Below the pieces are notes generated by a model. It made no database searches and was not told the DNA's origin. It was given only the letters and a program-made list of their open reading frames with translations. From contig CAMAHK010000002.1 in NCBI GenBank assembly GCA_945834475.1, positions 27,642 through 91,641 of the forward strand: a stretch of 64,000 nt of DNA. Reading direction: 5' to 3'. Shown piece after piece: positions 5,004 through 59,439 of the stretch (position 1 is its first letter; every line of letters begins with the position of its first letter). This DNA comes from an uncultured Verrucomicrobiota bacterium. Lineage in GTDB: Bacteria > Verrucomicrobiota > Kiritimatiellia > RFP12 > UBA1067. Made by a program: the position numbers and the translations under genes.

Positions 5004-6163
5004 TTCGCCTGCTCCGCCTGCGGCTCCGGCTGATACATATGGATCTTGTAGCTCCGCCAGCTGTCTTTCAAGATCAGCACCGCCATCAGGAGCATTAAGA
5101 GTCCCATGAAGAAGAGCGACGCGTACTTAACGATGCAGTCCGGCACACGGCGACGAAAAACAAGCGCAATCAACGCGAAAAGGATAAGTCCGCCGTCCAG
5201 CACCGGAATCGGGAGGAGGTTGAGAACCGCCAGGTTGACGTTAAGAAAGCGCAGGAAGCCGAGACCGTCCCACGGACTCTTGCGCATCGAACGGTAGATG
5301 CCTTCCGCAATCATCACGGGCCCGCCCAGTGCTCCAGCCGTGGCCTTCGCCTCCTTCGGCGTGACAAGCCCCTTCAGGATGCGCACAATCGACCCTGCGT
5401 CCCACGCGAGCTGCTTGATCGGATTGCGATCCGGCATCCACGCGACCGCACCCGCATGATTCGTCGTCGAGAGCGCCATGATGAAATACGCACCCGACAC
5501 ATCGTTCTTCTCGGGCGTGACGGCCACCATCAGCGGATCCGCTCCCGAGCGTTCGACCGTGAAGTCCACAGTCTTGCCCCCCGAGATCTGCACCTCGGTC
5601 TGCATCTCCGTCCAGTTCGCCACGGGACGCTCCCCGACCGCGACCACTCGATCGCCCGCCTGAAGTCCAGCCTTCGCCGCAGGACCGTCCGGCAAAACAT
5701 CCCCGAGGATCGCCGGAATCTCGCCGAACCGCGCCCCCGGAATCAACGCGAGCACACACGCCAGAACAATCGCCAACACGATATTCATTGCCGGACCCGC
5801 CACAGCGACCAACAACTCCTTCCACGCCGGAATCTTCTCAGCCTCCGTACCGCGGTGCGTCTCGCCCGCGGCGCTTCCTCCTTCCCCATCCACCTGAGCA
5901 CGCGCCCCCTCCAGAGCCTTCGCGCCCTCCGGATCCACATCGGGAATCGACACATATCCGCCCAGGGGGATTGCACTGATACGATACTCGATACCATTCA
6001 CGGTCTTCTTCCAAAGCGCCGGCCCGAAGCCGATCGAAAAGGCCTCGACGCGCAGCCCCAGCTTAAGCGCCACGATGAAATGGCCGAATTCATGCACGAG
6101 AATCGCCAGGGCGAAGAGAAGCACGCAGGCGATGACGTAAGCGATGGTGATGAGGATTTCCAT
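5000..6163 (-). CDS. rseP: RIP site-2 metalloprotease RseP
   Basis: HEFGHF zinc motif in the first transmembrane segment, PDZ-like middle region and C-terminal LDGG. Start chosen at MEILITIAY (ATG at 6161-6163). Contains an in-frame repeat encoding SAAGETHRGT. Confidence 0.85.
   Translation of the reverse strand: MEILITIAYVIACVLLFALAILVHEFGHFIVALKLGLRVEAFSIGFGPALWKKTVNGIEYRISAIPLGGYVSIPDVDPEGAKALEGARAQVDGEGGSAAGETHRGTEAEKIPAWKELLVAVAGPAMNIVLAIVLACVLALIPGARFGEIPAILGDVLPDGPAAKAGLQAGDRVVAVGERPVANWTEMQTEVQISGGKTVDFTVERSGADPLMVAVTPEKNDVSGAYFIMALSTTNHAGAVAWMPDRNPIKQLAWDAGSIVRILKGLVTPKEAKATAGALGGPVMIAEGIYRSMRKSPWDGLGFLRFLNVNLAVLNLLPIPVLDGGLILFALIALVFRRRVPDCIVKYASLFFMGLLMLLMAVLILKDSWRSYKIHMYQPEPQAEQAK
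5846..5873. repeat. Family-A palindromic element, intragenic and in frame (rseP)
   Basis: CGTACCGCGGTGCGTCTCGCCCGCGGCG. Confidence 0.7.
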
Positions 6164-6206
6164 TGATATAGGGTTGAGGTGAAAGATTGAGGTTGACAAT
6201 GGTGGT

Positions 6207-7355
6207 TTAAGTTCTTAGAAATGACTGCGTCCAGCGGACGGCTTCGTCGACGGCGGCGAGGGAATCGCAGGCGAAACGCGGGGCCTTTTCCAGCGACTCT
6301 TCGACGAGCCGCGCGATGTCGGTGTAGGCGATGCGTCCCTTGAGAAACGCATCGACCGCCCATTCGTCCGCCGCCGCGAGAACCGCCGTCGCACAGCCGC
6401 CCCTCGCGAGCGCGTCCTTCACGAGCCGCAGGCACGGGAAGCGCACGGGATCGGGCGCACGGAACGTGAGCGTCGCAAGCTTCGCGAGATCGAGCGTCTC
6501 GCGCTTGCTCGGCAAACGGTCGGGCCAGGTGAGCGCATACTGGATCGCCACGCGCATGTCGGGCGGCGAGAGTTGCGCGAGCGTCGCGCCGTCCACGAAC
6601 GTGACGAGCGAATGCACGATCGACTCGGGATGCACCACGACATCGATCTGGTCGTAGCCGACGTCGAAAAGCCACTTGGCCTCGATGACCTCGAAGCCCT
6701 TGTTCATCATCGTCGAGGAGTCAATCGTCACCTTCGGGCCCATCTTCCAGCGCGGGTGATCGAGCGCCTCGGCAACCGTGACCTTCGACAAGTCCGCCGG
6801 CCCGTCCAGGAACGGCCCGCCCGAGGCCGTCAGAATCAGTTTGGAGACGCCGTGGGCGAGACGCACCACGGTACGTGGTGGGGTCAGCATCGTACCGCGG
6901 TGTGTCTCGCCCGCGGCACTCACCCAGCACCCTGTCGCCAGACACTGGAAGATCGCCGAGTGCTCGCTGTCGACCGGCAGGAATCGGACACCCTTCTCCG
7001 CCGCGCGCTTCGTCACGAGTTCGCCGGCCATGACCATCACTTCCTTCGTCGCGAGGGCGATATCCATACCCTTGGCGATTGCCGCCAGGGTCGGCCTAAG
7101 CCCGCTCATGCCGACCGTCGCCACAAGGCAGATGTCGGCGTCGTTTTCCTCGACCGCGCGCACAGCAGCGTCTTCGCCGACATAGGCACGGCAGCCGAAT
7201 TCGGTCGCCAGCGCTTCGCACTTCTCCTTGGATCGCAGAGCCGCTAACGCGACGATTTCAAAGGCGTCTGGATGTGACCGAACGACATCGATCGCATTCA
7301 TGCCGATCGACCCCGTCGCTCCGAGTATGATGAGTCTTTTTCTATCCGCCGTCAT
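6207..7355 (-). CDS. dxr: 1-deoxy-D-xylulose-5-phosphate reductoisomerase
   Basis: Signature LGATGSIG...HP and full-length similarity. ATG at 7353-7355 (TTG three bases upstream). Contains an in-frame repeat encoding VSAAGETHRGT. Confidence 0.9.
   Translation of the reverse strand: MTADRKRLIILGATGSIGMNAIDVVRSHPDAFEIVALAALRSKEKCEALATEFGCRAYVGEDAAVRAVEENDADICLVATVGMSGLRPTLAAIAKGMDIALATKEVMVMAGELVTKRAAEKGVRFLPVDSEHSAIFQCLATGCWVSAAGETHRGTMLTPPRTVVRLAHGVSKLILTASGGPFLDGPADLSKVTVAEALDHPRWKMGPKVTIDSSTMMNKGFEVIEAKWLFDVGYDQIDVVVHPESIVHSLVTFVDGATLAQLSPPDMRVAIQYALTWPDRLPSKRETLDLAKLATLTFRAPDPVRFPCLRLVKDALARGGCATAVLAAADEWAVDAFLKGRIAYTDIARLVEESLEKAPRFACDSLAAVDEAVRWTQSFLRT
6891..6917. repeat. Family-A element, intragenic and in frame (dxr)
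   Basis: CGTACCGCGGTGTGTCTCGCCCGCGGC. Confidence 0.7.
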
Positions 7356-7366
7356 CAAGCCTATAT

Positions 7367-9750: not shown

Positions 9751-10653
9751 TCAGTTGCCCACCGACTCCCGAGAGTCGGTCGTCGCAAGGCGAGTGTCGA
9801 GAAACGTCTTGATGGCGCTGATACCGTAAATCGCCGCCGTCTCAGCTCGAAGGATCGTCGTGCCGAAGCTGACGGGCGTCGCGATCTCAAGGAGTGCCGA
9901 GAGTTCCTCCGGCGTGAAATCGCCCTCAGGGCCGACGTAGAGAGAAAACCCGTACCGCGAGCCGTCCTCGGCCGCGGCGGGTAAAAGCTCGCCATCGCCG
10001 CGGGCGAGGACGCACACTGCTCTAGCGACTGCCTTCGGCAGCTCGGCTTCGCCTCGGCAGATATGCGGTACGAGGCTCCCCAGCACCGCTCCAATCGTCC
10101 GTGGCGGCGGCATCGTAAGCGCCCCAACAAAGCACTGGGTTTCCCTGACAAGTGCGAGGGATTCGGCGAAGGTCACGGGAGCGAGCACCTCGGGAATCCA
10201 CTTCGCATCCGACTGCCGCGCCGCGTCCTCGGCGATGCGAGTCCAGCGCTCGCGTTTCGCCTCGCGCTCCTTCGCATCAACGCGCACGATCGTCCGGTCG
10301 GAGATGACCGGCACAATACGCGTGACGCCAAGTTCCGTCGCCTTCTCGATCGTCCAGTCCCACCGCGAGCCCTTCGTCACGCAGGCGAAGAGGATGAGAG
10401 AGGGAGGTGGAGGTTGGAGGTGGAGGTCTTCCGATTGCGGCGAGGCAGGAGTGCCTCGCCCCCGAGACACCAATGGGGACGCGACACTCTTGTCGCGTCG
10501 GAATAAGAAAACCCTCCACTTCCCCTTCCCGTCAAAGAGTTCGATCTCCTCGCCGTCCTTGGGGCGCAACACCTTCAGGTGATTCGCCGCCTCTTTGGAA
10601 AGCTGCGGTGCATCGGAAGAAAGTTCGGACGTAGGAACGAGGAGTCGGTGCAT
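9751..10653 (-). CDS. rsmE: 16S rRNA (uracil1498-N3)-methyltransferase
   Basis: PUA-like N-terminus and C-terminal ILRAETAAIYGISA motif. Carries two in-frame repeat insertions and a PPPP microsatellite. Confidence 0.65.
   Translation of the reverse strand: MHRLLVPTSELSSDAPQLSKEAANHLKVLRPKDGEEIELFDGKGKWRVFLFRRDKSVASPLVSRGRGTPASPQSEDLHLQPPPPSLILFACVTKGSRWDWTIEKATELGVTRIVPVISDRTIVRVDAKEREAKRERWTRIAEDAARQSDAKWIPEVLAPVTFAESLALVRETQCFVGALTMPPPRTIGAVLGSLVPHICRGEAELPKAVARAVCVLARGDGELLPAAAEDGSRYGFSLYVGPEGDFTPEELSALLEIATPVSFGTTILRAETAAIYGISAIKTFLDTRLATTDSRESVGN
9950..9988. repeat. Family-B element, in frame in rsmE
   Basis: CCGTACCGCGAGCCGTCCTCGGCCGCGGCGGGTAAAAGC. Confidence 0.7.
10439..10500. repeat. 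Family-C double-hairpin element, in frame in rsmE (plus purine-rich tandem at 10401-10427)
   Basis: GGCGAGGCAGGAGTGCCTCGCC ... GACGCGACACTCTTGTCGCGTC. Confidence 0.75.
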
Positions 10654-12861: not shown

Positions 12862-15171
12862 TCACGGGCGGCAATCCCGAGATTGAAGGCGTTCCGCCAG
12901 TGAGGTGCGGCGTTCGCGGACGGTGTTGGTCTCGATGGCGCGGTCGATGGCGTAGGGCACGCCCATCAACAGGACGAGCTTTTTGCCGCGCGTGATTGCC
13001 GTATAAAGGAGATTGCGCTGGAGCATCACGTAATGCTGCGTGTGGATGAGGACAATTACCGCCGGATACTCGCTGCCCTGCGACTTGTGGATCGTCATCG
13101 CGTAAGCGAGCACCAGTTCGTCCAGATCGCCCGCGTCATACTTGACGGGACGCCCGTCGAAATTGATGATGAGCGAACGGTCGTCGGAGTTGACAGCCTT
13201 TACAAACCCGACGTCACCGTTGAAGACATCCTTGTCGTAATTGTTCCGCAGCTGCATCACGCGGTCCCCGACGCGGAACGCCGTTCCACCGCGGATGATT
13301 GCATCCCCCTGCGGATTGAGCGCCTTCTGAAGCTCGCTGTTGAGATTGTCAGTACCAAGCGTATTGCGGCGCATCGGGGTAAGAACCTGCACATCCTGCA
13401 GCGGATCCATCCCGAACTTGTTCGGAATGCGCGTCGTCATGAACTCGATCGCCCGCCGCAGGCACTGCTGCGGATCCTCGCAGCGCGCGAAATAGAAATC
13501 GGTGTCGTCGCGTCGGATCTCCAGCGGCTCGCCCGCGTTCACATGGTGAGCGTTCTTGACGATGAGGCCCGAGGAGTCTTGCCGGAAAATGAAGTCGAGC
13601 TTCGTCGCCGGCACGACCTTCGACTTGATAAGATCGCCGAGAACCGATCCCGCGCCGACACTCGGGAGCTGATCCGTATCACCCACCCAAACGACGACCG
13701 CCGTGTCGGGCACGGCCTTCAGGAGTTCGCACGCGAGCTTCACGTCAATCATCGACGTCTCATCGAAGATGAAGACGTCCCCTTCCAGCGGATTGTCGGC
13801 GTCGAAAGTGAAGCGGTTCGTGACCGGATTCCATTTCAAGAGCCGGTGAATCGTCTGTGCACCTTGCACCGTACCGCGAGCCGTCCCCGGCCGCGGCGTG
13901 GTAACAGCTCCCTCCCCGAAAATGCTCTCCGTCATCCGCTTCGCCGCGCGGCCTGTCGGCGCAGCCAGGACGACGTTCAGCTTCTTGACGCCTTGATAGA
14001 TCTCGACCAGTGCGCGGATGATCGTCGTCTTGCCAACGCCAGGGCCGCCGGTGATGATCGAGAACTTCGAGTCAAGCGAATTCGCAAGCGCCTCGCGCTG
14101 CCGCTCGGCGAGCTCGAAGCGCTGACGCGACTGCCACCAGGCGATGGCCTTCGCACAGTCGAACGCGGGGAAGGCGCGCGGGGTCGTGAGAATCGCCTTT
14201 ACGCGCGCGGCAACGTCGCGCTCGGAGTAGTAGAGCGAGCGGAGGTAGATCTTTCTCGGTTCCGACGCGACAAGAGTGTCGCGTCCCCGTTGCGTATCAG
14301 CTGGGGGCGAGACACTCTTGTCTCGCCGCTCAGAAGACTCATACACCACTCTTCCCGCCTCGATCTCCGCGGCCAGCGCCTCGCTCAAAATCTCCGTCGG
14401 AATCCCAGTCAACTCGTTCGCATGAAGGAGCAACTCATTCTCGTACGTCCAGCAGTGTCCGCCGTCCTCGCTCTCGGTCTCGAGCGTGTACGAGATCGAT
14501 GCGCGGGCCCTGAGTGGCGAGTCTTTTGGAATCCCGACCGAGAGCGCGATCTTGTCGGCCGTCGCGAAGCCGATGCCCCAGATGTCGCGGCAGAGGCGGT
14601 ATGGATCCTGCTTGACGATCGCGACGGCGTCGGGACCGTACTTGCGCACGATCTTCGTCATCTTCGTAATCGAGATTCCGTAGGTCTGCCCGAAGATCAT
14701 GTTCTCGCGCATCGTCTCGTTCGCGTGCCACGACTCGCGGATCTGACGGATCTTCGCCGCACCGAGCTTCGGCACTTCGGAGAGGCGTCCCGACTGATGC
14801 GAGAGAACGTGCATTGTCTCCTCGCCGAACGTGTCGACGATGCGCTTCGCGAGCACGGGACCGATGCCCTTGATGAGTCCGGAGGCGAGATACTTCTCGA
14901 TCCCCTTCAGCGACCGCGGTGCGACGCAGGTCAGCGTCTCGGCCTTGAACTGGCGGCCGTGCACCTTGTCCGTCACCCACAGTCCCTCGGCCTTGATCTC
15001 CTCGCCCTCCCACACGGCCTGCGTCTTGCCGACGACCGTGATCTCGGGATTGCGCGCGAGTTCGAATTCGCTCGGAATTTCGACATGCAGAACCGTATAC
15101 CCGTTCGCGTCGTTGTGAAAGACGACGGATTTGATGGTGCCTTCGACGATCTCGCGCTCCGACTCGCTCAT
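12862..15171 (-). CDS. recD2: RecD2-like SF1 ATP-dependent DNA helicase
   Basis: GGPGVGKTT Walker A, helicase motifs and C-terminal HKSQGSEY. Contains one in-frame double-hairpin repeat. Confidence 0.8.
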   Translation of the reverse strand: MSESEREIVEGTIKSVVFHNDANGYTVLHVEIPSEFELARNPEITVVGKTQAVWEGEEIKAEGLWVTDKVHGRQFKAETLTCVAPRSLKGIEKYLASGLIKGIGPVLAKRIVDTFGEETMHVLSHQSGRLSEVPKLGAAKIRQIRESWHANETMRENMIFGQTYGISITKMTKIVRKYGPDAVAIVKQDPYRLCRDIWGIGFATADKIALSVGIPKDSPLRARASISYTLETESEDGGHCWTYENELLLHANELTGIPTEILSEALAAEIEAGRVVYESSERRDKSVSPPADTQRGRDTLVASEPRKIYLRSLYYSERDVAARVKAILTTPRAFPAFDCAKAIAWWQSRQRFELAERQREALANSLDSKFSIITGGPGVGKTTIIRALVEIYQGVKKLNVVLAAPTGRAAKRMTESIFGEGAVTTPRPGTARGTVQGAQTIHRLLKWNPVTNRFTFDADNPLEGDVFIFDETSMIDVKLACELLKAVPDTAVVVWVGDTDQLPSVGAGSVLGDLIKSKVVPATKLDFIFRQDSSGLIVKNAHHVNAGEPLEIRRDDTDFYFARCEDPQQCLRRAIEFMTTRIPNKFGMDPLQDVQVLTPMRRNTLGTDNLNSELQKALNPQGDAIIRGGTAFRVGDRVMQLRNNYDKDVFNGDVGFVKAVNSDDRSLIINFDGRPVKYDAGDLDELVLAYAMTIHKSQGSEYPAVIVLIHTQHYVMLQRNLLYTAITRGKKLVLLMGVPYAIDRAIETNTVRERRTSLAERLQSRDCRP
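14264..14327. repeat. Family-C double-hairpin element, in frame in recD2
   Basis: GACGCGACAAGAGTGTCGCGTC ... GGCGAGACACTCTTGTCTCGCC. Confidence 0.75.
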
Positions 15172-15890
15172 GGCGCGGCGAATTCGAGGCGCTTATGGGT
15201 GAACGGATGCGTGAAGACGAGCTTCACGGAGCGCAGGTAAAGGCGATCGGCCTTCTTGCCGCCGTATTTGACGTCACCGACAACCGGGTGGCCCGCCTCG
15301 GAGAAATGGACGCGGATCTGATTCTTGCGTCCCGACTTGAGCGCGACTTCGACGGTGGTTGTTTTCTGTTGCGGCGAGGCAAGAGTGCCTCGCCCCCGTT
15401 GCGGAGCTCCCTCATTCGGGGGCGAGACACTCTTGTCTCGCCGCAAGGAAATCTTCCTCCATTCCGTCCGCGCCAGTTTTCCGCCCTTCGCGACCGACCT
15501 GACGCGGTACCCGTCGGCGTCTTCCTGAAGATAGCTTTCAAAGACGCCTTCATCCGCCTCAATCACGCCCTCGACCGTCGCGACGTAGGTCTTCTCCGTG
15601 AGCTCATTCCAGCGGTCGCGAATCGCATCTGCCAGGCGCTCGTCCTTCGCGAACAACATCACGCCGCTCGTCTCGCGGTCGAGACGGTGCACAAGAGAGA
15701 CATGCTTCGAACTGCGGGCCTGTCCCTTGCGGACGTAGGCGTTAAGGAAGTTTTCAGCCGTCGGCTGCGCCTCGCGCGCGGCGCGTCCGATCAGCCGCGT
15801 GTTGGTCGTGAGAAGCCCCGCGGGCTTGTCGATCACAATGATGTCGCGATCTTCGTAAAGGATCTCAAAGGGAAGGAACTTGTTGCGCAT
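15168..15890 (-). CDS. RluA-family pseudouridine synthase
   Basis: HRLDRETSGVMLFAK catalytic motif. Its stop overlaps the recD2 start (ATGA). Contains an in-frame double-hairpin repeat. Confidence 0.75.
   Translation of the reverse strand: MRNKFLPFEILYEDRDIIVIDKPAGLLTTNTRLIGRAAREAQPTAENFLNAYVRKGQARSSKHVSLVHRLDRETSGVMLFAKDERLADAIRDRWNELTEKTYVATVEGVIEADEGVFESYLQEDADGYRVRSVAKGGKLARTEWRKISLRRDKSVSPPNEGAPQRGRGTLASPQQKTTTVEVALKSGRKNQIRVHFSEAGHPVVGDVKYGGKKADRLYLRSVKLVFTHPFTHKRLEFAAP
15373..15442. repeat. Family-C double-hairpin element, in frame in the rluA-family gene
   Basis: GGCGAGGCAAGAGTGCCTCGCC CCCG...CGGG GGCGAGACACTCTTGTCTCGCC. Confidence 0.75.
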
Positions 15891-15905
15891 GGGGAGTCTT
15901 GTCAG

Positions 15906-15933
15906 CGCCGCGGGCGAGACGCACCGCGGTACG
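15906..15933. repeat. Family-A element, intergenic (rluA-family gene to aminotransferase)
   Basis: GCCGCGGGCGAGACGCACCGCGGTACG. Confidence 0.7.
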
Positions 15934-15938
15934 GAGCG

Positions 15939-17138
15939 TCAGGTGAGCATTTTGGCGATGCGCTCGGCGGCGATTTTGATCTTCTCGAGGGAGGTCGCGT
16001 ACGACATGCGCACGAAACCCGCGCCGCATGTGCCGAAAGCCGAGCCCGGCACGACGGCGACGCCGTAGTCCTTCAGGAGCTTCATCGCAAAATCCTCGTC
16101 GCTCATTCCCGTCGAACGGATGTCGCAGAAGATGTAGAACGCGCCCTTCGGCATCACGGTCTTGAGCCCCATCGCATTCAATGCCGGCACGAGGAAGTCG
16201 CGGCGCTTCTGATATTCACGACGCATCCGCTCGACGTCCGTGTCGCCGAAGTCCATTGCCTCGACACCGGCGGCCTGCGCAAGCGTCGGGGCGGACATGA
16301 TGCCGTACTGATGGATCTTCATCATCGCGTCGATGACGTCCGCCGGCCCACAGGCGTAGCCGAGACGGTACCCCGTCATCGCCCAGCTCTTCGAGAAGCC
16401 GTTGAGGAGAATGACGCGGTCACGATGTTCCGGGAAGGCGGAGAAGCTGGGGAGAAAATGCTGTTCATCGCCGCGGCCGAGGACGGCTCGCGGTACGGTA
16501 TAGTTCAGCTCGCTATAGACCTCATCGGCCAGGATCAGGAGATCATGCCGCTCCGCAAAGGCGAGAATCTCGGCCATGTCGGCGCGGCTCAAGACGGCAC
16601 CTGTCGGATTGCACGGAAAGTTGAGGAGCATCGCCTTCGTCTTCGGCGTCACCTTCGCCTCGAGCGCGGCGACCGTCAGGCGGAACTCATCCTCAGCCCG
16701 CGTCTCGACGCAAACCGGTACGGCGTGCGCCAGCCGGATCGTCGGCGCATAGGAGACAAAGCACGGCTCATGGTAGAGGATCTCGTCACCTGGCGAGCAG
16801 ATCGCTCGGATCGCGAGGTCGATCGCCTCCGAGACACCCACCGTGACGAGCACTTCCTTCGTCCAGTCGAAGGACGAGCCAAAGCGCCGCGTCAGATAGC
16901 GGCAGATCGCCTGACGCAGATCGGGTGTGCCGAGGTTGGACGTGTAATGCGTACCGCCATTCTCCAGGCACGTCACCGCTGCACGCGAAATGTGCCAAGG
17001 CGTGTCGAAGTCCGGTTCGCCGACACCAAGCGACACCGTATCCTTCGACTGCGCAACGATGTCGAAGAACTTGCGAATGCCACTCTTCGGCAGTTCGGCC
17101 ACATGCGGCGCAACGCGCGATCTCTTCTCCATTGCCAT
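15939..17138 (-). CDS. Class I/II PLP-dependent aminotransferase (aspartate aminotransferase-like)
   Basis: SKSWAMTGYRLGY lysine motif. Contains an in-frame repeat. Confidence 0.75.
   Translation of the reverse strand: MAMEKRSRVAPHVAELPKSGIRKFFDIVAQSKDTVSLGVGEPDFDTPWHISRAAVTCLENGGTHYTSNLGTPDLRQAICRYLTRRFGSSFDWTKEVLVTVGVSEAIDLAIRAICSPGDEILYHEPCFVSYAPTIRLAHAVPVCVETRAEDEFRLTVAALEAKVTPKTKAMLLNFPCNPTGAVLSRADMAEILAFAERHDLLILADEVYSELNYTVPRAVLGRGDEQHFLPSFSAFPEHRDRVILLNGFSKSWAMTGYRLGYACGPADVIDAMMKIHQYGIMSAPTLAQAAGVEAMDFGDTDVERMRREYQKRRDFLVPALNAMGLKTVMPKGAFYIFCDIRSTGMSDEDFAMKLLKDYGVAVVPGSAFGTCGAGFVRMSYATSLEKIKIAAERIAKMLT
16469..16498. repeat. Family-B element, in frame in the aminotransferase gene
   Basis: CGCCGCGGCCGAGGACGGCTCGCGGTACGG. 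Confidence 0.7.
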
Positions 17139-26309: not shown

Positions 26310-28935
26310 CAACCACAGCATCTTTGCCTGGCTTCTGTTCCCGCTCGCCATCTTCCCCCTGATGGCGCTTCTCACGTATGACGCCCGCGTCTACACCGAA
26401 TTGCCGGCTCCGCCCACGTCCAACTGGATCGGTGCGCTCGGCGACGCCTTCGCGCATTACGGATACCTCCTTTTCGGTCTCGCGATCTGGATCGTCCCGA
26501 TCCTCTGCGTGATCGCCGGCTTCTGCCTCGTCCGCGGACGCCGCATGCGCCCTGGGCGGCGCGAACTCTGGTTCTTCGTCTTCCTCTCGGCCGTCGCCTG
26601 CCTCGTTCAGGCCCTCGGCGACCATGGTGGACTCGTGGGAGTTCTGACCGAGCAGCTGAACATTCCCGATGCGGGCGGCGTGGTCGGCTACCTCCTGATG
26701 ACCCGCGCCCTCGCACCGCTTCTTTCCGACTTCGGCGCCTCGATCGTCATTGCGATCCTGGCCGTCATCGCCCTTATCGGGGCCGTCGGCGCCCACAACC
26801 TCGTCGCCTTCCTCGCCGCGATCTTCCATTGGGCAATGAGGGGCTCCGCAGCCGCACGTGCGGCTGCTAACGATAAAGTTAGAGCGATGCGTGATGAGCG
26901 GAGTGCAGAAGGTTCTTCTGACAACGAACCAGATCCGTACGAAGCGATACGCGCCGCCAAGGAAGAGGCACGGCGTCAGCGCGAGGAAGAGAAGGAACGC
27001 ATCCGCCAGGAGAAGCTCCGCATCAAGGAAGAGAAGCGCGCCCAGAAGGAAGCTGAGAAACTCGCGAAGTGGGAGGCCAAGCACAGGCTTGAAAGCGCCG
27101 CGGGCGAGGACGCACCGCGGTACGATGCCGCCCCCGTACCGCCGCCCGTCTCGGGCGCGGCCTCCCAAACGCCCTCCCCGTACCGCGGTGCGTCCTCGCC
27201 CGCGGCGTCTCTAGGCGACACGCCGCCTCCCCCCGAGGACAAGGGGCCCTACCAGCTGCCCTCGCTCTCGCTTCTCAATCCCCTCAAGAAGTCATCCGCC
27301 GACCATGGCGACGTCAGCGAGACCTCGCGCAAGCTCGTCGACACGCTCAAGCTCTTCGGCGTCAATGCGGAACTCGCCTACACGGTGCAGGGTCCTGTCG
27401 TCACGAAGTACGCGCTCACGCCCGAGCCGGGCACGCGTCCCGAGAAGTTCCTCGCGCTCCAGAACACGCTCATGATGGCGCTCAAGGCGAAGTCGCTCCG
27501 CATCGAGGCGCCGATCCCTGGCGAGGACAAAGTCGGCATCGAAGTCCCCAACCGTGCGCCAGCCGGCATCTCCTTCCGAGAGATCATCGAGTCGGACGCC
27601 TGGAAGAAGTTCAAGGGCGAGCTACCTCTTCTCTTTGGCAAGAAGGCGGACGGCACGGAGCTCGTCGCCGACCTCGCCTCAATGCCGCACATGCTCGTCG
27701 CCGGCGCGACGGGCCAGGGCAAGTCGGTCTGCCTCAACTCACTCATCAACGGTCTTCTCATGACGAAGACGCCCGAGCAACTGAAGCTCATCATGGTCGA
27801 CCCGAAGTCCGTCGAATTCACGGCGTACGCCTCGCTCCCGCACCTGATCGTCCCCGTCATCACGGACAACAAGAAGGTCGTCTTCTCGCTCCGCTGGGCT
27901 GTCGCCGAAATGGAGAAGCGCCTCAAGCTCTTCGCGCGCGCCCGCGTGCGCAACATCTATGACTTCAACCACCGGCCGTCCTTCACCCAGACGGACATGT
28001 TCGGCAACGACACGGCCGTCAACTCGTCGATGCCGAAGACCGTTCCCTACATCGTCATCATCATCGACGAAGTTGCGGACCTCATGGCCTCGAACGGCAA
28101 GGAGGTGACGCCCGACATCGCGCGCATCACCGCGAAGGCGCGTGCCGCCGGCATCCACATGATCCTCGCGACGCAGCGTCCGGATGCGAAGATCATCACG
28201 GGCACGATCAAGGCGAACATCCCCGGCCGCGTCGCGTTCAAGACCTCGCAGGCCATCGACTCGCGCACGATTCTCGACGACTGCGGTGCCGAGAACCTCA
28301 TCGGCCGCGGTGACATGCTCTTCAAGGGCAAGGACGGCCTCCTCGTGCGCGCGCAGGGCGCGTGGATCTCTGATGAGGAAATCGCCCGCATCACCGAGTT
28401 CATCGAAAAGCACTCCAACACAGAATTTGACGACCGCTTCACCAAGAAGCTTGCGACGATCAAGGAAGAGGAAGTCGACCTCTTCGCCGACGACGAGCCC
28501 AAGACCAGCGGCGACGACGCGAAGGAGGCGGCCGCCGTCCAGCGCGAGCAGGTCAAGGCCGAGGAGAACGCGAGCGACTTCAAGAAGGCCGTCGAATGCA
28601 TTATCAACACGAACCGCGCCTCGACCTCCCACTTCCAGCGCAAGCTCGGCTGGGGCTACAACCACTCGGCGAAGATCATGGACATGCTCGAGGATGCCGG
28701 CGTGATCGGTCCACAGGTCGGCGCAGGGCCGCGCCAGATCATCATGGACCAGGACCAGCTCATGGCCGTCTTCAAGGGCGAAGCTTCCGCCGCAGCCTCC
28801 GACGATGCCTTCGACCCCGTACCGCCGCCCGTCTCGGGCGCGGCGGGCAACAGCGACAACGAGAACGTCTTCGACGGCCGACAGCCGACAACCGACGACC
28901 CCTTCGCCGCTCCATCAGACGAAGAAGAATTCTAA
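26284..28935 (+). CDS. ftsK: DNA translocase FtsK
   Basis: N-terminal transmembrane helices, a long linker and a C-terminal motor with Walker A GATGQGKS and a gamma domain. The linker contains a nested palindromic repeat. Confidence 0.9.
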   Translation: MTEPSSQTDNHSIFAWLLFPLAIFPLMALLTYDARVYTELPAPPTSNWIGALGDAFAHYGYLLFGLAIWIVPILCVIAGFCLVRGRRMRPGRRELWFFVFLSAVACLVQALGDHGGLVGVLTEQLNIPDAGGVVGYLLMTRALAPLLSDFGASIVIAILAVIALIGAVGAHNLVAFLAAIFHWAMRGSAAARAAANDKVRAMRDERSAEGSSDNEPDPYEAIRAAKEEARRQREEEKERIRQEKLRIKEEKRAQKEAEKLAKWEAKHRLESAAGEDAPRYDAAPVPPPVSGAASQTPSPYRGASSPAASLGDTPPPPEDKGPYQLPSLSLLNPLKKSSADHGDVSETSRKLVDTLKLFGVNAELAYTVQGPVVTKYALTPEPGTRPEKFLALQNTLMMALKAKSLRIEAPIPGEDKVGIEVPNRAPAGISFREIIESDAWKKFKGELPLLFGKKADGTELVADLASMPHMLVAGATGQGKSVCLNSLINGLLMTKTPEQLKLIMVDPKSVEFTAYASLPHLIVPVITDNKKVVFSLRWAVAEMEKRLKLFARARVRNIYDFNHRPSFTQTDMFGNDTAVNSSMPKTVPYIVIIIDEVADLMASNGKEVTPDIARITAKARAAGIHMILATQRPDAKIITGTIKANIPGRVAFKTSQAIDSRTILDDCGAENLIGRGDMLFKGKDGLLVRAQGAWISDEEIARITEFIEKHSNTEFDDRFTKKLATIKEEEVDLFADDEPKTSGDDAKEAAAVQREQVKAEENASDFKKAVECIINTNRASTSHFQRKLGWGYNHSAKIMDMLEDAGVIGPQVGAGPRQIIMDQDQLMAVFKGEASAAASDDAFDPVPPPVSGAAGNSDNENVFDGRQPTTDDPFAAPSDEEEF
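27097..27208. repeat. Family-A' nested palindrome (~112 bp), in frame in the ftsK linker
   Basis: Left arm GCCGCGGGCGAGGACGCACCGCGGTACG and right arm CGTACCGCGGTGCGTCCTCGCCCGCGGCG flank the core CCCCGTACCGCCGCCCGTCTCGGGCGCGG. The same 30-bp core recurs at 28815-28844. Confidence 0.75.
28815..28844. repeat. Solo 30-bp core of the family-A' element, in frame in ftsK
   Basis: CCCCGTACCGCCGCCCGTCTCGGGCGCGGC, identical to 27131-27160. Confidence 0.65.
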
Positions 28936-30791: not shown

Positions 30792-30793
30792 CA

Positions 30794-37172: not shown

Positions 37173-37203
37173 GGTACCGCGGGCGAGGGCGCCTCGCGGT
37201 ACG
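37173..37203. repeat. Intergenic palindromic element (CGTACCGCG...CGCGGTACC type) directly after the giant gene stop
   Basis: GGTACCGCGGGCGAGGGCGCCTCGCGGTACG. It shares termini with the intragenic family and could act as a terminator hairpin. Confidence 0.6.
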
Positions 37204-37333
37204 ATAAACGCGCGGGGGATCGAAAGGTCCTCCGCGTTGCTTTATGGTCGATATTGCCGTGGGCTTTGATCGCGATGTTGTTGCATTAACTTTGTCAATC
37301 GACCCCAACAAGACGAACTCCTGCATTGGGTGC

Positions 37334-41638: not shown

Positions 41639-41659
41639 GACACACCCAAGACACATGCC

Positions 41660-44451: not shown

Positions 44452-45453
44452 TTAGCGTATGAGCGTCTTTAGGTACGGGACGGCGTGGGCGAAGAACCGC
44501 TGCCAGCCGACGTCCAGTGTGCCACGGTTGCGGGGACAGTCCGGGAACTGCCGCTTGCGCAGGCCGAAATTCGCGTAGACCGGCGAGTCGAGGAGTTCCT
44601 CCCACGTGTGCGTCATCACGTTGCCGAGCTTCAGCTCGGGTATGACGTGGAAGTCGCACGGATAGACATCGCCGTTGCGCTCGACCACAAGATAGTTGCG
44701 GCAGTCGGACGCGAAATTGCACATCGTCGGCACGCCGCGCACGAGCTGCGAGACGACGGAATCAAAAAGCCGCACACTCACCGTGTGCTCGTCGCCCTCC
44801 TTGCGCCACTCGTCGAAGAGCCGGCAGAGGAACTCACCCCACTGCTCTCCCGTGATCGCATACGGCTTCGGATCCGTGCACTCGATGTACTGGTGCCACT
44901 TGCACCCGAGCTCGTCGCGGATGTAATGGTACAGCGCCTCCGGCTCATGCACGTTCTCGGCCGTAATGAGCTGGAGCACGTTGACCGGCGTCCCGGCGGC
45001 GACCAGCGTGCGGTACCCGGCAAGGCCGGACTCCGTATCGCGGTGCGTCTCGCCCGCGGCACTCTCCAAGCCGCCTTTACCCGCTGCGGGCGAGACGCAC
45101 CGCGGTACGGAGCGCCGCCAGTGCGGACTCACACCAACGAGCCAGTCCTTTTCCGCGAAAAACGCCGCCAGTGACTCCGTCACCAGCGTCGCGTTGGTCT
45201 GCACGGAGAAGTCGATGCCGTCGCCCAGCTTGGCCGCACGACGGAAGAAGCGCTCGCCCATGATAAGCGGCTCGCCGCCCTGGAAGGCGACGGTGTGCTG
45301 CGCAATCGGCAGCGCCCGGTAGGAGGTCAGCATCCGCTCCAGCACCGCGTCGGACATCGGCGCGACCTCACCGTGTCCTCGGTAGAAGCAGTAGGGACAC
45401 GCGAGATTGCAGGCCGAACCCGCGGGCTTGACGAGGAGCGAGAACTCGCGCAT
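44452..45453 (-). CDS. Radical-SAM/SPASM maturase (anaerobic sulfatase-maturating-enzyme-like)
   Basis: CNLACPYC cluster near the N-terminus and a Cys-rich SPASM region. Contains an 76-bp inverted-pair repeat in frame. Confidence 0.6.
   Translation of the reverse strand: MREFSLLVKPAGSACNLACPYCFYRGHGEVAPMSDAVLERMLTSYRALPIAQHTVAFQGGEPLIMGERFFRRAAKLGDGIDFSVQTNATLVTESLAAFFAEKDWLVGVSPHWRRSVPRCVSPAAGKGGLESAAGETHRDTESGLAGYRTLVAAGTPVNVLQLITAENVHEPEALYHYIRDELGCKWHQYIECTDPKPYAITGEQWGEFLCRLFDEWRKEGDEHTVSVRLFDSVVSQLVRGVPTMCNFASDCRNYLVVERNGDVYPCDFHVIPELKLGNVMTHTWEELLDSPVYANFGLRKRQFPDCPRNRGTLDVGWQRFFAHAVPYLKTLIR
45034..45109. repeat. Family-A composite: two inverted copies with 22-bp spacer, in frame in the anSME-like gene
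   Basis: CGTATCGCGGTGCGTCTCGCCCGCGGC ... GCTGCGGGCGAGACGCACCGCGGTACG. The terminal inverted repeats read CTCCGTA(c/t)CGCGG. Confidence 0.75.
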
Positions 45454-45457
45454 CGCG

Positions 45458-48117: not shown

Positions 48118-49347
48118 CTAGCAGAAGACCCGTTCAACGCGATTGCCGAGCGAACAGATGATATCGTAGGCGTGGGTGCCCTTCAGGGCCGCCCAGTCGT
48201 CGGGCGTGATCGAGTCGTTTCCACAGGCGCCGAAGCAGATGACCTCGTCACCGGGCTTCACGTTCGGGACGTCCGTGACGTCGACGGTCGTGTAGTCCAT
48301 CGAGATGCGTCCGACGATCTTGCAGCGCTTGCCGCCGATGAAGACAAAGCCGCGGTTCGTGAGCGCGAGGGGGAGTCCGTCGGCATAGCCCGCCGAAATC
48401 GTCGCGATCGTGCGCGGCTCGGCAAGACACCACGTGCGGCCGTAGCCGAGCGTCGTTCCGGCGGGAAGCTCGCGCACCTGCGCGACGTGCGTCTTCAGCG
48501 TGAGGACGGGCTCCACCTTGAGCGCCTTGCGTCCGTAAGGGTCGAAGGATCCGTGCAGGTTGATGCCCGTGCGCACCTGCGTGAACGGCGCCTTCGCTGT
48601 TTCGGGGAAATTGTTGATCGCGTCCGAGGCCGCCATGTGGACCTTCTTGAAGGAGATGCCCTCCTTCGCACACGCGGCGACGAGCGCCTTGAAGAGCTTG
48701 ATCTGCGTCTTCGTGTACGGGTCCTTCGGCTCGTAGGCCATCGGACAGTGCGAGAAGATGCCTTCGCAGTCGAGGTTCGGAAGCGCGCGCACGGCGCGAA
48801 TCGTCGCGAGGGCCTCGGCAAGGCCCGTCGGTCCCGTCGCGCGGATGCCGAGGCGTCCCATGCCCGAGTCGATCTTGAAATGGACGCGCGCCGTCGTCTT
48901 CGCCCTCACGGCCGCAGCGGAGATCAGCTTCGCGGTCTCGAGGTCGGTGATCGGCAGGATCACGCCCGCCCGAACCATCTCGGGAATCTCGTCGGGGAGG
49001 ATTGAGGAGAGGATTTGGATGGAGGGGATTTGGATGGAGGGGATGTTCTGTTCTGGCGCGACAGGAGTGTCGCGCCCCCTTTGAGCCGTCGCACGCAACG
49101 GGGACGCGACACTCCTGTCGCGTCGTACGAAAACCTTCCTCAACTCCAACGCCTCGTACGGTTCGGCGACGCCGAAGTCGGTGCAGCCCGCCTCGGCGAG
49201 GGCCTTCGCATACGCGGAAACCCCGAGCCCGTAGGCATTCGCCTTTAAAACCGACAAGACCTTCATCGGCGCGACATGCGCGGCGATCTTGCGATAGTTC
49301 CGCACCAGGGCCTGAAGGTCGATTTCAACAGTAACGCGCCTCTTCAC
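48118..49347 (-). CDS. alr: Alanine racemase
   Basis: PLP lysine region VLKANAYGLG. Probable GTG start. Contains a double-hairpin repeat and a 15-bp tandem duplication in frame. Confidence 0.8.
   Translation of the reverse strand: MKRRVTVEIDLQALVRNYRKIAAHVAPMKVLSVLKANAYGLGVSAYAKALAEAGCTDFGVAEPYEALELRKVFVRRDRSVASPLRATAQRGRDTPVAPEQNIPSIQIPSIQILSSILPDEIPEMVRAGVILPITDLETAKLISAAAVRAKTTARVHFKIDSGMGRLGIRATGPTGLAEALATIRAVRALPNLDCEGIFSHCPMAYEPKDPYTKTQIKLFKALVAACAKEGISFKKVHMAASDAINNFPETAKAPFTQVRTGINLHGSFDPYGRKALKVEPVLTLKTHVAQVRELPAGTTLGYGRTWCLAEPRTIATISAGYADGLPLALTNRGFVFIGGKRCKIVGRISMDYTTVDVTDVPNVKPGDEVICFGACGNDSITPDDWAALKGTHAYDIICSLGNRVERVFC
49055..49124. repeat. Family-C double-hairpin element, in frame in alr (15-bp tandem duplication at 49011-49040)
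   Basis: GGCGCGACAGGAGTGTCGCGCC ... GACGCGACACTCCTGTCGCGTC. Confidence 0.75.
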
Positions 49348-55073: not shown

Positions 55074-56420
55074 CTATGCCTTTGAGAGAATGACGAGGGT
55101 CTCGAAGCGTGCTGTTCGCGGGAACATGTTGAACCAGCGCACGGATTCGACCTTATAGCCCTTCGAAATTTCCTTCAAATCGCGCATAAGCGTCGCCGGA
55201 TCGCACGAAACATAGAAGATTCGCGGAGCTTTGGACTGAGCCAGCCAACGCGCGACACCGGGTTCGAGTCCCCCGCGGGGCGGATCAATGACAACGGTCG
55301 TCTTCGGCGTCACCGAGATGCGCTTCAGGTTCCGCCCGACTTCCTCGGCGTAGAAGCGGAACGATGAGGTGGAGGTGGAAGGTTGAGGTGGACAGCGGAA
55401 GATGGCTTCCGCGTTGCGCCGGGCGAAGTCGATTGCCGCACGCCCCGACTCGATGCCGGTGAGGCGCCCTCCGTACCGCGAGCCGTCCTCGGCCGCGGCG
55501 CTGGCACAGCACAGCCCGAACACGCCGACGCCGCAATAGAGGTCGAGAATATCCGGCGCGACAGCCGCGCCCTTCTGGTATTCGGCGACGACCGCCCGGA
55601 CGAGTTCTTCTCCAACCTCGGGATTGACCTGATAGAAGCCGTCGGCCGGCACCTCAAAATCGCGGCCAAGCGTCGTTTCCTTGAGAACAAGGCCCTGCGG
55701 CGCCTTGCCGAGCCACCACTTGACACCCGTCTTCTTCGTCCATCGAATCGTGACGTTCGCCTTCTTCTCCGTCTCGCGACGCACAACCTCCGGACCTGTC
55801 GTCAGCAGCATCAGAATCTGCCGCCGGATCTCAGGCAACTTCGCGTTGATCTCAGGACGCGCCAGAGGATCTGACGCGATGTCGACGATCTCATGCGAGG
55901 GCTCGGTACGATAGCCGATGACGAACGGGGACGCGACACTCCTGTCGCGTCGGGAATCGGAAGAAGCGTCCTTATTCCGGCGAGGCAAGAGTGCCTCGCC
56001 CCCGATTCTCCCGATGTGATAAACGACCTTGTTCCGGTAGTTAAGCTCCATCCCAGCCGACGTACCCGCGCCGCCTCGGCACGAGGCGCTCACCCAGCCG
56101 CTGTCACCCATCCCCACCGAAATCCGCGCCCGCTCGAAGAACTCACGCAGCTGCTGCTCCTTGGCCGCACACTCGCCCTTGTAGGAGAGCGAGGCATAGA
56201 CCATGCCGGGGACAGACCCCTCTTCCTTCACGCGTTCGGGACTCGGCTCGACGATTTCGACGAGCCGGGCCTTGACGAAGCTCTTCTTCTCTTCGACGAT
56301 TTCGGCGCGGACTTGTTCGCCGGCCCAGGCGCCGGGCACGAACACGACGCGCCCGTCGCCCAGACGGCCAAGTCCGTCGCCGCCATAGACGTTCTTTGCG
56401 ATGTAGACCGTCGAGATCAC
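55074..56420 (-). CDS. rlmD: TRAM-domain SAM-dependent RNA (uracil-5)-methyltransferase, RlmD/TrmA family
   Basis: Motifs VIDPPRGGL and FYVSCDPATL. GTG start overlaps the upstream stop. Carries three separate in-frame repeat insertions. Confidence 0.7.
   Translation of the reverse strand: MISTVYIAKNVYGGDGLGRLGDGRVVFVPGAWAGEQVRAEIVEEKKSFVKARLVEIVEPSPERVKEEGSVPGMVYASLSYKGECAAKEQQLREFFERARISVGMGDSGWVSASCRGGAGTSAGMELNYRNKVVYHIGRIGGEALLPRRNKDASSDSRRDRSVASPFVIGYRTEPSHEIVDIASDPLARPEINAKLPEIRRQILMLLTTGPEVVRRETEKKANVTIRWTKKTGVKWWLGKAPQGLVLKETTLGRDFEVPADGFYQVNPEVGEELVRAVVAEYQKGAAVAPDILDLYCGVGVFGLCCASAAAEDGSRYGGRLTGIESGRAAIDFARRNAEAIFRCPPQPSTSTSSFRFYAEEVGRNLKRISVTPKTTVVIDPPRGGLEPGVARWLAQSKAPRIFYVSCDPATLMRDLKEISKGYKVESVRWFNMFPRTARFETLVILSKA
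55471..55500. repeat. Family-B element, in frame in rlmD
   Basis: CCGTACCGCGAGCCGTCCTCGGCCGCGGCG. Confidence 0.7.
55930..56000. repeat. Family-C double-hairpin element, in frame in rlmD
   Basis: GACGCGACACTCCTGTCGCGTC ... GGCGAGGCAAGAGTGCCTCGCC. Confidence 0.75.
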
Positions 56421-58456: not shown

Positions 58457-58578
58457 GTTGTATCTCTTTCTTTTATCCTGTTAAACTAATGTCTCGCCCC
58501 GTGGACGCGGTGTCCCCGCCGCGTCAAACAAAGGCAGTCTCTTTCCACCGCCGAGCGGAGAGGACTCCGCGTCTACGA

Positions 58579-59439
58579 TCAAACCAAAACATTATCGATC
58601 AACCGCGTCTTGCCGTCGTACGCCGCGACGAGCACGCAGCATCCCTTGCCGATCTTCTTGCGCGTCTCGAGCGTCTCGGCATCAACGCATTCGACATAGT
58701 CGACCTTAAGTCCCGCCTTCGTCAAATCACGCTTAAGCTGCGCAATTCCGTACCGCGGAGCGTCCTCGCCCGCGGCGTCTCCAAGACCGCTCTTTCGCGC
58801 AGCGCCGGCCAGCTTCCTGAGTCCCCCCGAAATCGCGAGCGCCTTCGCCTTCTCCTCGGCGGAGAGGTACGTGTTGCGGCTCGAGCGGGCGAGGCCCGAC
58901 GGCTCGCGCACGATCGGCGCGACGACGATCTCGAGGTCGAAGTTGAGATCGCGCACCATGCGCTTGATGATCTGCGCCTGCTGGTAGTCCTTCTGACCGA
59001 AGACCGCGAAGTCGGCGTGAGCGAGATTGAAGAGCTTCGCGACGACCGTGCAGACGCCGCGGAAGTGCCCGGGACGCCGCGCGCCGCAGAGGCCCTTCGA
59101 GAGGTCCTCCTCGTTCACATAGACCGAGTGACGCTCAAGGTACATGTTCGTCGGCGTCGGGAAGAAGATTGCCGTCGCGCCCGCGGCCTTGCACTTCGCA
59201 AGGTCGGCCTTCTCGTCGCGCGGATACTTCTCGTAATCCTCGCCCGGACAGAACTGCACGGGATTGACGAACACCGAGACGATGATCTCGTCCGCCCCCT
59301 TCGCCTTCGCCTTCGCGATCAGCGAGAGATGTCCCTCATGCAAGTACCCCATCGTCGGCACGAGCGCAATCTTCTTGCCCGCCTTCGACTGGGCCTTCGC
59401 CCACTTCTGCAACTTCTTCGGTTCACGAAAAATTTTCAT
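58579..59439 (-). CDS. panC: Pantoate--beta-alanine ligase
   Basis: ALVPTMGYLHEGHLSL HIGH motif. ATG at 59437-59439, preceded by a TGGTATAAT box. Contains an in-frame repeat. Confidence 0.85.
   Translation of the reverse strand: MKIFREPKKLQKWAKAQSKAGKKIALVPTMGYLHEGHLSLIAKAKAKGADEIIVSVFVNPVQFCPGEDYEKYPRDEKADLAKCKAAGATAIFFPTPTNMYLERHSVYVNEEDLSKGLCGARRPGHFRGVCTVVAKLFNLAHADFAVFGQKDYQQAQIIKRMVRDLNFDLEIVVAPIVREPSGLARSSRNTYLSAEEKAKALAISGGLRKLAGAARKSGLGDAAGEDAPRYGIAQLKRDLTKAGLKVDYVECVDAETLETRKKIGKGCCVLVAAYDGKTRLIDNVLV
58749..58777. repeat. Family-A' element, in frame in panC
   Basis: CGTACCGCGGAGCGTCCTCGCCCGCGGCG. Confidence 0.7.

Follow-up and report, generated by a model that had tools for sequence, protein, structure and literature searches.

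The window analysed here is the whole 64,000-nucleotide stretch of contig CAMAHK010000002.1 (positions 27,642 to 91,641, assembly GCA_945834475.1) of an uncultured Verrucomicrobiota bacterium. It carries a set of short palindromic repeats, probably of the repetitive extragenic palindromic (REP) type, most of which lie in frame inside housekeeping genes. The sequence has 61% G+C and is densely coding: 95.0% is coding sequence (CDS) and 4.6% is neither CDS nor tRNA. Pfam matches outline a housekeeping neighbourhood with ispG, rseP, dxr, map, adk, rsmE, citrate synthase, recD2, an rluA-type gene, an aminotransferase gene, prs, folE, ftsH, dacA, ftsK, dnaE, a MiaB-like gene, malic enzyme, alr, hslO, glgP, rlmD, a GH97 gene, panC and dnaB. 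The closest relatives of the window proteins are from Kiritimatiellae (Dxr homologues at 74–75% identity have sources named Kiritimatiellae or Kiritimatiellia bacterium), and the contigs with identical or 97–99.9% identical DNA come from pig-gut metagenome assemblies (pig-gut samples with the species are ERZ13405076, ERZ27292453, ERZ8810629, ERZ940786 and ERZ978717). One of these contigs, L061, is from the same species, being 99.9% identical across the overlap, and reaches 9.4 kb past the left end of the window. With this extension and an extra flank on contig L043, about 80 kb of the species was read. The window total is 28 repeat units at 18 sites. Twenty-five units, at 15 of the sites, are in frame within intact conserved genes, which make up 11 of the 47 genes of the window; three units are intergenic.

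The repeats were located by an approximate search with seven consensus sequences together with a repeat finder, and they fall into two groups. The first (18 units in the window) is a superfamily of four sub-families, A, A', B and D, with a common head CCGTACCGC and a common outer stem. Sub-family A reads CGTACCGCGGTGCGTCTCGCCCGCGGCG, A' corresponds to A with a loop longer by one base, B reads CGTACCGCGAGCCGTCCTCGGCCGCGGCG and D reads CGTACCGCCGCCCGTCTCGGGCGCGGC. The head tetranucleotide was GTAC in 16 of 17 aligned units and GTAT in one, and these units are called GTAC-type below. The second group, family C, is a separate palindrome, GGGG(A/G)CG(A/C)G(A/G)CACTC(T/C)TG(T/C)C(G/T)CG(T/C)C, devoid of any GTAG- or GTAC-like head. 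Its 10 units always form inverted doublets, of which there are five. A first-pass annotation of the window had proposed three related families, A/A', B and C; the relationship of A, A' and B was confirmed and extended to D, whereas C proved to be unrelated. Six copies of family A were found within three mismatches, against none in 100 shuffles, and family C gave 10 matches, against none in shuffled sequence. A covariance model built from 17 GTAC-type units returned exactly 17 units in the window, with scores of 40–54 bits. The next-best match reached 13.9 bits, indicating that there is no halo of decayed GTAC-type copies. The 18th unit is the A' unit of rsmE, which is interrupted by a nested insert of 50 nt. 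This 50-mer contains a CTGCC-TTCG-GGCAG hairpin, and a 100% identical copy lies at L061:15035-15084, beside an A' unit within a glycosyltransferase gene. A second small element targeting REPs and a longer REP variant are possible identities.

Single units are 30–40 nt long, and doublets cover 65–125 nt, the longest being the ftsK cluster and the rsmE composite. The A unit measures 33 nt, with the rseP copy and the intergenic 15904..15935 copy complementary at 33 of 33 positions. Two B copies (the 30793 unit and 9950-9988) are identical at 39 of 39 positions, including the tail GGTAAAAGC, and a TCTCCAAG-like tail is present on most other units. When folded as single-stranded DNA, single units reached -11 to -14.5 kcal/mol. 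The GTAC-type stem consists of 8–9 bp with one bulged base; in the minimum-energy folds, 4–6 outer pairs are followed by the bulge, 3–5 inner pairs and a loop of 3 or 4 nt. In family C the stem is unbroken, 9 bp long and closed by a 4-nt loop. Of the stem cells of the GTAC-type units, 97.7% were paired, compared to 28–56% when the partner was slid by 1–3 columns. One inner stem pair covaries between sub-families, being G-C in 9 and C-G in 7 of the distinct sequences, and the position of the bulge differs by one between them. The hairpins formed by doublets are long, at -30 to -56 kcal/mol and z-scores between -5 and -9. The heads of GTAC-type doublets point inward in dxr and ftsK and outward in the radical-SAM gene, and in the C doublets the similarity of the arms extends over at least 41 nt per side. 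Among single units the head was on the plus strand in 7 of 10 when orientation was compared with the GC-skew strand, which is not significant. The two ftsK A' units, at 27096-27124 and 27179-27207, are complementary at 29 of 29 positions, which would allow a perfect 29-bp duplex within the ftsK mRNA, a candidate substrate for RNase III. An Rfam scan of the window returned three tRNAs only, with no match at the repeat sites, and a known RNA family was rejected as an identity for the repeats.

Table 1. Repeat sites of the window, of the L061 extension and of three metagenome contigs, followed by neighbouring features.
Gene or region	Position (strand)	Repeat or feature	Product or remark
rseP (5000-6199, minus)	5844..5875 (+)	family A, in frame	antisense peptide SAAGETHRGT
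dxr (6207-7358, minus)	6846..6920 (units 6846-6877 minus, 6889-6920 plus)	family A inverted doublet, heads inward	adds 26 residues
rsmE (9751-10653, minus)	9949..9981 (+)	family B	antisense peptide PAAAEDGSRYG
rsmE	9996..10075 (-)	family A' split by 50-nt insert (10016-10065)	with the B unit, ~40-residue insert directly ahead of conserved GPEG motif
rsmE	10437..10501	family C inverted doublet	downstream of PUA domain; RRDKSVASPL..RGRGTPASP
recD2 (12862-15171, minus)	13868..13900 (+)	family B	within helicase domain 1A; among the few copies outside the lowest-arginine frame
recD2	14262..14329	family C inverted doublet	
RluA-type pseudouridine synthase gene (15168-15890, minus)	15371..15444	family C inverted doublet	
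intergenic	15904..15935 (-)	family A	between aminotransferase stop (15939) and rluA start (15890)
class I aminotransferase gene (15939-17138, minus)	16467..16499 (-)	family B	sense peptide VPRAVLGRG
ftsK linker (26227-28935, plus)	27094..27209	three units: A' minus, D plus, A' plus	
FtsK C-terminal tail, after gamma domain	28816..28847 (+)	family D	peptide PVPPPVSGAA
intergenic	30793..30825 (+)	family B	upstream of endonuclease gene (30837-31859)
intergenic	37173..37205 (-)	divergent GTAC-type, 43 bits	between convergent 1495-aa ORF and dnaE
radical-SAM/SPASM gene (44452-45483, minus)	45032..45111	family A inverted doublet, heads outward	
alr (48118-49347, minus)	49053..49126	family C inverted doublet	
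rlmD (55074-56420, minus)	55470..55502 (+)	family B	directly after SAM-binding motif I
rlmD	55927..56003	family C inverted doublet	+24 residues vs orthologues P0131, P0150
panC (58579-59502, minus)	58747..58779 (+)	family A'	antisense peptide DAAGEDAPRYG
L061 extension: ABC ATPase, family 2 glycosyltransferase, CysS		three GTAC-type units, in frame	
L061 extension: 250-residue ORF		one C doublet	
L061 extension: intergenic		one weak unit	
metagenome contigs, ABC-F-like ORF	L058:1762-1827, L059:1767-1916, L060:265-329	C-type units	up to four in row
tRNA genes	8977-9058 (-), 12615-12685 (-), 12712-12800 (-)		
1495-residue ORF	32682-37169 (+)		
dnaE	37334-41656 (-)		1440 residues
DDE transposase gene (PF01609)	62275-64000 (+)		runs off right end of window

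The host open reading frames (ORFs) encode RseP, Dxr, RsmE, RecD2, an RluA-type synthase, a class I aminotransferase, FtsK, a radical-SAM/SPASM protein, Alr, RlmD and PanC. Each has Pfam domains on both sides of the insert, or a domain spanning the insert with a matching length excess. Every copy listed in the first-pass annotation was recovered in its place, including the three intergenic ones (15906, 30795, 37175), and the repeated palindromes are indeed in frame in intact housekeeping genes. The peptides it quoted (SAAGETHRGT, VPRCVSPAA, AAAEDGSRYG and RRDKSVASPL...RGRDTLV) are the exact products of the host frames. All of its 14 intragenic copies are present, but the number of sites is 15: a second recD2 site had been missed, and the second rsmE site is composite. 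The density of one copy per 4 kb it had given has to be replaced by 28 units at 18 sites in 64 kb. At least six independent pig-gut assemblies contain these ORFs with identical inserts, and the inserts are therefore neither assembly artefacts nor signs of pseudogenes. The intact frames suggest that the inserts are translated within the host proteins; an example of a peptide spanning an insert junction is LGDAAGEDAPRYG. Four further in-frame sites exist in the 9.4-kb L061 extension, showing that the repeat density, about one site per 2–4 kb, is not an effect of the choice of the window. Intergenic sequence, 4.6% of the window, holds 3 of the 18 sites, a mild excess (P about 0.05) of the kind expected from weak purging out of coding DNA. 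The distribution of the repeats is close to random with respect to coding DNA.

Close relatives have empty sites. The Dxr protein P0002 is 97% identical to the window Dxr outside one gap and does not possess the 26-residue insert. Its contig L001, from a sister lineage with 90–92% DNA identity to the window, is without the 78-nt dxr doublet, and its rseP loop is 18 nt shorter and free of the repeat. A covariance-model scan of L001 and of the more distant relative L039 yielded no unit, and no repeat family was seen in the 14 kb of L039. More distant Dxr orthologues have a short loop at the insert site, making an insertion in the window's lineage the parsimonious direction. Comparisons with solved homologues agree. 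The aminotransferase insert corresponds to an exact 9-residue gap in the alignment with the Pyrococcus AroAT 1DJU. In RecD2, the B site (13868) faces a 17-residue gap in the Deinococcus radiodurans protein and the C site (14262) a 13-residue gap in 3E1S. The RluA-type enzyme has about 24 extra residues relative to solved homologues. At the insert sites, the gaps in solved homologues amount to about 9 and about 40 residues for RsmE, about 32 for Alr and about 13 for Dxr. PanC is the weaker case, as the repeat aligns with small gaps only, and the repeat may there have replaced resident sequence. The lineage-specificity put forward in the first-pass annotation is thus supported by the absence from L001 dxr and rseP and by the gaps in solved homologues. 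The view that these segments are ancestral sequence, assembly artefacts or pseudogene markers found no support: with empty sites in close relatives, identical inserts in the independent assemblies and all host ORFs intact, we consider it refuted, its remaining probability being negligible.

Differences were also visible between strains of the species. Unlike the window, the rseP gene of strain L002 (98.1% DNA identity) carries a further A unit of 36 nt immediately ahead of its stop codon, and the alr gene of strain L043 (97%) contains an additional C unit (48 nt) plus spacer. All length differences between strains are multiples of three, and the host ORFs are open in every assembly. Repeat sites differ between co-occurring strains, and paralogous copies are up to 39/39 identical. 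Taken together, these sequence comparisons indicate that the repeats have recently been mobile. No target-site duplications were visible in the three comparisons of filled and empty sites. Next to the C doublet of alr, at about 49005-49040, the 15-nt sequence ATCCCCTCCATCCAA stands twice in tandem and encodes a repeated IPSIQ motif; this tandem repeat is itself polymorphic, with a single copy in L043.

All six reading frames are free of stop codons in every family, and the frame bias of the GTAC-type units is consequently not imposed by stops. In a tally of 18 coding GTAC-type units, 14 used the frame poorest in arginine, given their orientation, and none used the most arginine-rich one. Under an equal-frame null, the probability of at least 14 units in the lowest-arginine frame is about 1e-4, and that of none in the worst frame about 7e-4. 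The sense copy of A' at 27179 and the sense copy of A at 45082 are in different phases, and both are read in the low-arginine frame, which points to selection on the peptide rather than to a fixed insertion register. The RRDKSVASP reading is maintained in each of the five C doublets, whose spacers of 11, 14, 20, 20 and 23 nt are all 2 modulo 3. A usable structural model was obtained for one host protein, Dxr. The AlphaFold2 model has a mean predicted local distance difference test (pLDDT) value of 82 and TM-scores of 0.80–0.84 to solved DXRs. Its single internal low-confidence segment, residues 141–168, is the insert, located between a well-predicted helix and a well-predicted strand, and the insert is predicted to be disordered. 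A model of RlmD, with which its two inserts might have been placed, was too poor (mean pLDDT 58) and was dropped.

Strongly non-random frame use could also mean that the inserts are kept for a function, either as DNA or mRNA hairpins acting in pausing, processing or stability (through RNase III, for example), or as peptide modules for interaction or flexibility. The conserved hairpin with its compensatory pair, the perfect 29-bp duplex offered by the ftsK A' units and the occupation of the same dxr loop in several lineages (see below) would fit such a role. A selection filter, however, explains the frame bias without any function. Copies vary among near-identical strains and are absent from the sister lineage, the host genes being intact regardless. 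The host proteins and the insertion positions are mutually unrelated, and the sequences occupying the same loop in different lineages are unrelated too. A given unit is read in both orientations and at times in a different frame, and the Dxr insert is predicted to be disordered. A retained function appears improbable to us, and the inserts would rather be neutral passengers than functional modules.

In the Dxr proteins of other Kiritimatiellae, unrelated repeat-like peptides were present at the same loop. The DNA of two such relatives was retrieved (contigs L041 and L042). L041 dxr contains two tandem copies of AGCGGTCGCGCGGGGGCGCGCGACCCTACCGA; in L042, GGCGGGGCGCGAGGTCGCGCCCCGTACGA is present twice in dxr and once in rseP. 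On the opposite strand these repeats are stem-loops headed by GGTAGG and CGTACG, respectively. Seven more copies of the dxr family of L041 are clustered in an unannotated 1.5-kb gap of that contig. A tblastn search with the REP-associated tyrosine transposase (RAYT) of Opitutus terrae (supplement of PMC3733652) matched this gap with E = 3e-14. The ORF at L041:3017-3574 has an HUH motif (MPDHVH), the sequence WQRGFFDHRLR and the sequence YVAMNPVRKGL (YxxxNPVRKGL). PF01797 is present in its database relatives, several of which bear the name REP element-mobilizing transposase RayT. By these motifs and matches, the L041 ORF is a RAYT gene surrounded by its own REPs, which also occur in frame in dxr on that contig. 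Five further close RAYT homologues were found on short contigs, each flanked by GGTAGG-headed stem-loops, and several of these stem-loops have GTCC(T/C)C loops like A' and B. The contigs of close RAYT homologues are mostly about 1 kb long. The head is GGTAGG in L041 and in L047-L057, and CGTACG in L042. Low-complexity intergenic arrays were also noted in both relatives, at L041:4575-4662 and 9213-9268 and at L042:1596-1753 and 10106-10364; examples are runs of the octamer GGTTTCTA, of AGTTGSCA, of CAACAACCA and of GAGACGAGAGAC.

Other databases were scanned for the families of the window. In the GTDB species genomes, a degenerate A/A'/B/D pattern, which was too loose, gave single chance matches only, in high-GC Actinomycetota and other phyla. 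An exact A/A' scan of the JGI metagenomes found none, and a scan with the sequence C1 found three contigs with C-type units inside an ABC-F-like ORF (Table 1), indicating that family C is wider than this species. These units are read in another frame (GTRHSCRV) than those of the window, and no transposase is near them on the three contigs. In the RlmD proteins of other lineages (P0128, P0143, P0153 and others; alignment columns ~128-165), C-like peptides were observed at a site other than that of the window's C doublet: TRDRNVASP, and SRDKNVASPL, twice in tandem in P0153. In P0122 and P0143 RlmD, a possibly decayed insert (SREK...) is present at the position of the window's C doublet.

We consider it likely that the repeats are non-autonomous mobile elements of the REP type, including the inverted doublets known as REPINs, and that they are probably moved in trans by a RAYT. 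By analogy with the relatives, such an enzyme would move the families of this genome. Several observations weigh against this reading. No RAYT was found in the ~80 kb of species sequence (window, L061 extension, L043 flank), and none of the window's families was seen at the retrieved RAYT loci, so that the link to RAYT rests on homology of architecture. The head is GTAC here versus GTAG or GT[AG]G for RAYT-tied REPs, in the literature and in the relatives, and family C, being headless, offers no GTAG/GTAC tie for its movement. The comparisons of filled and empty sites are unclean: at each of the three polymorphic sites the loop around the insert differs in sequence as well, leaving the exact boundaries, the target and the cleavage site ambiguous. 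The extra C unit of L043 resembles a local tandem duplication of unit plus spacer, not a transposition.

These observations leave room for repeats that propagate without a RAYT, as derivatives of a DDE insertion sequence (IS) resembling miniature transposable elements with inverted repeats (MITEs), by recombination or gene conversion between palindromes, or by local hairpin-mediated duplication. A DDE transposase gene does lie at the end of the window (Table 1), the inverted arms of family C are MITE-like with their length of at least 41 nt, and no dedicated transposase was found for CGTC-type REPs (Di Nocera et al. 2013, PMC3733652). Yet the three polymorphic sites are without visible target-site duplications and the single units of 30–40 nt are without terminal inverted repeats. 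The copies are dispersed across 73 kb in unrelated genes, which local duplication cannot explain. The GTAC-type architecture and loop sequence, moreover, are common to the repeats flanking RAYT genes in relatives. Propagation independent of a RAYT therefore seems unlikely, though less so than a retained function.

We propose the following model for REP-type elements mobilized by a RAYT. The units, single or in inverted doublets, combine the conserved unpaired head CCGTACC with a bulged GC-rich stem-loop behind it. New copies would arise through a single-stranded hairpin intermediate, probably by the action of a RAYT-type HUH tyrosine transposase with a single gene elsewhere in the genome. Most insertions would hit genes because the region is about 95% coding. 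Selection would then purge the copies that break the frame, hit structured parts of the protein or are read in an arginine-rich frame. The survivors would be young, near-identical copies translated as short loops and linkers rich in Ala, Gly, Pro and Ser in otherwise normal housekeeping proteins. A further possibility, to which we give clearly less credence, is that the REP/REPIN niche has shifted to coding sequence in gut Kiritimatiellae, with units translatable in either orientation, the same permissive loops reused across lineages and, genome-wide, roughly a quarter or more of the housekeeping genes concerned. If true, this would represent a clade-wide, still active source of variation in protein length.

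REPs and REPINs are extragenic in textbook accounts, and translated copies are deemed rare outside Rickettsia and a few genomes such as that of O. terrae. The repeats described here amount to a natural replicated experiment on where essential enzymes such as Dxr, Alr, PanC, RsmE, RecD2 and FtsK tolerate insertions of 10–40 residues, on how selection filters reading frames and on how transposase-driven repeats persist with almost no intergenic space. From a practical point of view, such repeats break metagenome assemblies and inflate the apparent protein divergence in uncultured gut bacteria.

Some other features of the window deserve mention. Synteny breaks at the DDE transposase gene (62275-64000); at the corresponding place L043 has instead an N6/N4 methyltransferase gene and a gene for a large TnsA-like protein. 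The 1495-residue ORF is without Pfam match and has a third-position G+C of 0.72, below that of its neighbours. DnaE has PHP and NTPase domains longer than their Pfam profiles, and no copy of the known repeat families was detected in its gene. The tRNA gene at 12615-12685 overlaps the start of the longest citrate synthase ORF, placing the true start of citrate synthase further downstream.

The behaviour of these repeats can be compared with three known systems. REPIN-RAYT systems are reportedly treated by Nunvar and co-workers (2010) and by Ton-Hoang and co-workers (2012). Those of Pseudomonas and Enterobacteria (Bertels and Rainey 2011, PMC3116915) resemble the present case in their inverted REP doublets that fold into long hairpins, in near-identical copies within a genome, and in that each lineage has its own, vertically inherited family. 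Relatives of the window organism likewise have a single-copy RAYT gene flanked by its own REPs, with seven REPs around the L041 gene (3017-3574) and the same family in dxr. Classical REPINs lie almost entirely outside genes, as a rule next to a gene's 3' end, whereas the repeats here are near-random with respect to coding DNA and would be translated. The units are short imperfect palindromes in the 20–40 nt range of REPs, dispersed in many copies (28 units in 64 kb) as singles and inverted dimers. They depart from REPs in lacking an unpaired terminal GTAG (GTAC in 16 of 17 units, GTAT in one, family C headless) and in being mostly coding (25 of 28 units, 15 of 18 sites).

The Rickettsia palindromic elements (RPEs; Ogata et al. 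2000, Science 290:347; 2002, Genome Res 12:808) are, as summarised in PMC10969869 and PMC3733652, palindromic repeats in frame in many unrelated housekeeping genes, which add a stereotyped peptide and leave the host protein intact, at locations inferred to be compatible with the protein fold. The RPE-like behaviour noticed in the first-pass annotation, with in-frame insertion into intact ORFs of unrelated conserved proteins, therefore holds. According to the same summaries, RPE-1 is about 100–150 bp long and AT-rich and resides in the reduced genomes of obligate intracellular alphaproteobacteria, RPEs have no known transposase, and two of them, RPE-4 and RPE-6, belong to the CGTC type. Here, the units are GC-rich REP units of 30–40 nt in a free-living gut anaerobe of a different phylum, and by length, base composition and phylum they would fall outside RPE families 1–10 and probably have no sequence relationship to them. 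Homology to RPEs was rejected in view of the REP architecture (30–40 nt unit, unpaired head, bulged GC-rich stem-loop, head-in and head-out dimers).

The closest parallel is O. terrae, a member of the Verrucomicrobia and thus of the Planctomycetes-Verrucomicrobia-Chlamydiae (PVC) group. Di Nocera, De Gregorio and Rocco (2013, BMC Genomics 14:522, PMC3733652) sorted REPs into GTAG- and CGTC-tagged superfamilies and tied the GTAG REPs to RAYT genes. They found most REPs to be intergenic, and REPs inside genes in several species, with the highest numbers in O. terrae (GTAG type) and Rickettsia conorii (CGTC type, corresponding to RPE-4 and RPE-6). More than half of the intragenic REPs were dimers or groups encoding 20–30 residues, and some genes carried two. 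The GTAG head was given as GT[AG]G with listed variants, none with C in the fourth position. The CGTC type has a terminal CGTC, a stem of 8–9 bp opening with A/T pairs, a loop of 4–5 nt and a CCA tail; this identity was rejected here, since the stems start with C-G pairs and there is no CCA tail. The elements of O. terrae share with ours the short GC-rich stem-loops with an unpaired terminal tetranucleotide, the singles and head-in or head-out dimers, the several families per genome, the in-frame position in known proteins, sometimes twice per gene, and the dimers encoding 20–30 residues. They differ by the head, GTAG or GTGG against GTAC, and by the association with RAYT genes, against no cognate RAYT found in the ~80 kb read here. 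The REPs of that survey are mostly intergenic, against 25 of 28 coding units here. The O. terrae chromosome has a size of roughly 6 Mb. The 70 mentions of the species counted here in additional file 3 of PMC3733652, which include dimers of 20–30 residues, would correspond over ~6 Mb to about one site per 85 kb, compared to one per 2–4 kb here. Contrary to the first-pass annotation, which had taken such behaviour as not established in PVC-type genomes, in-frame intragenic REPs are already known, in the PVC group (O. terrae) as well as in Rickettsia; for Kiritimatiellae, full-text literature searches found nothing on this behaviour. New with respect to these systems are the lineage, a GTAC head outside the described variants, a second, headless palindrome family, the polymorphism at the strain level, the reuse of one loop by different families and a much higher coding density.

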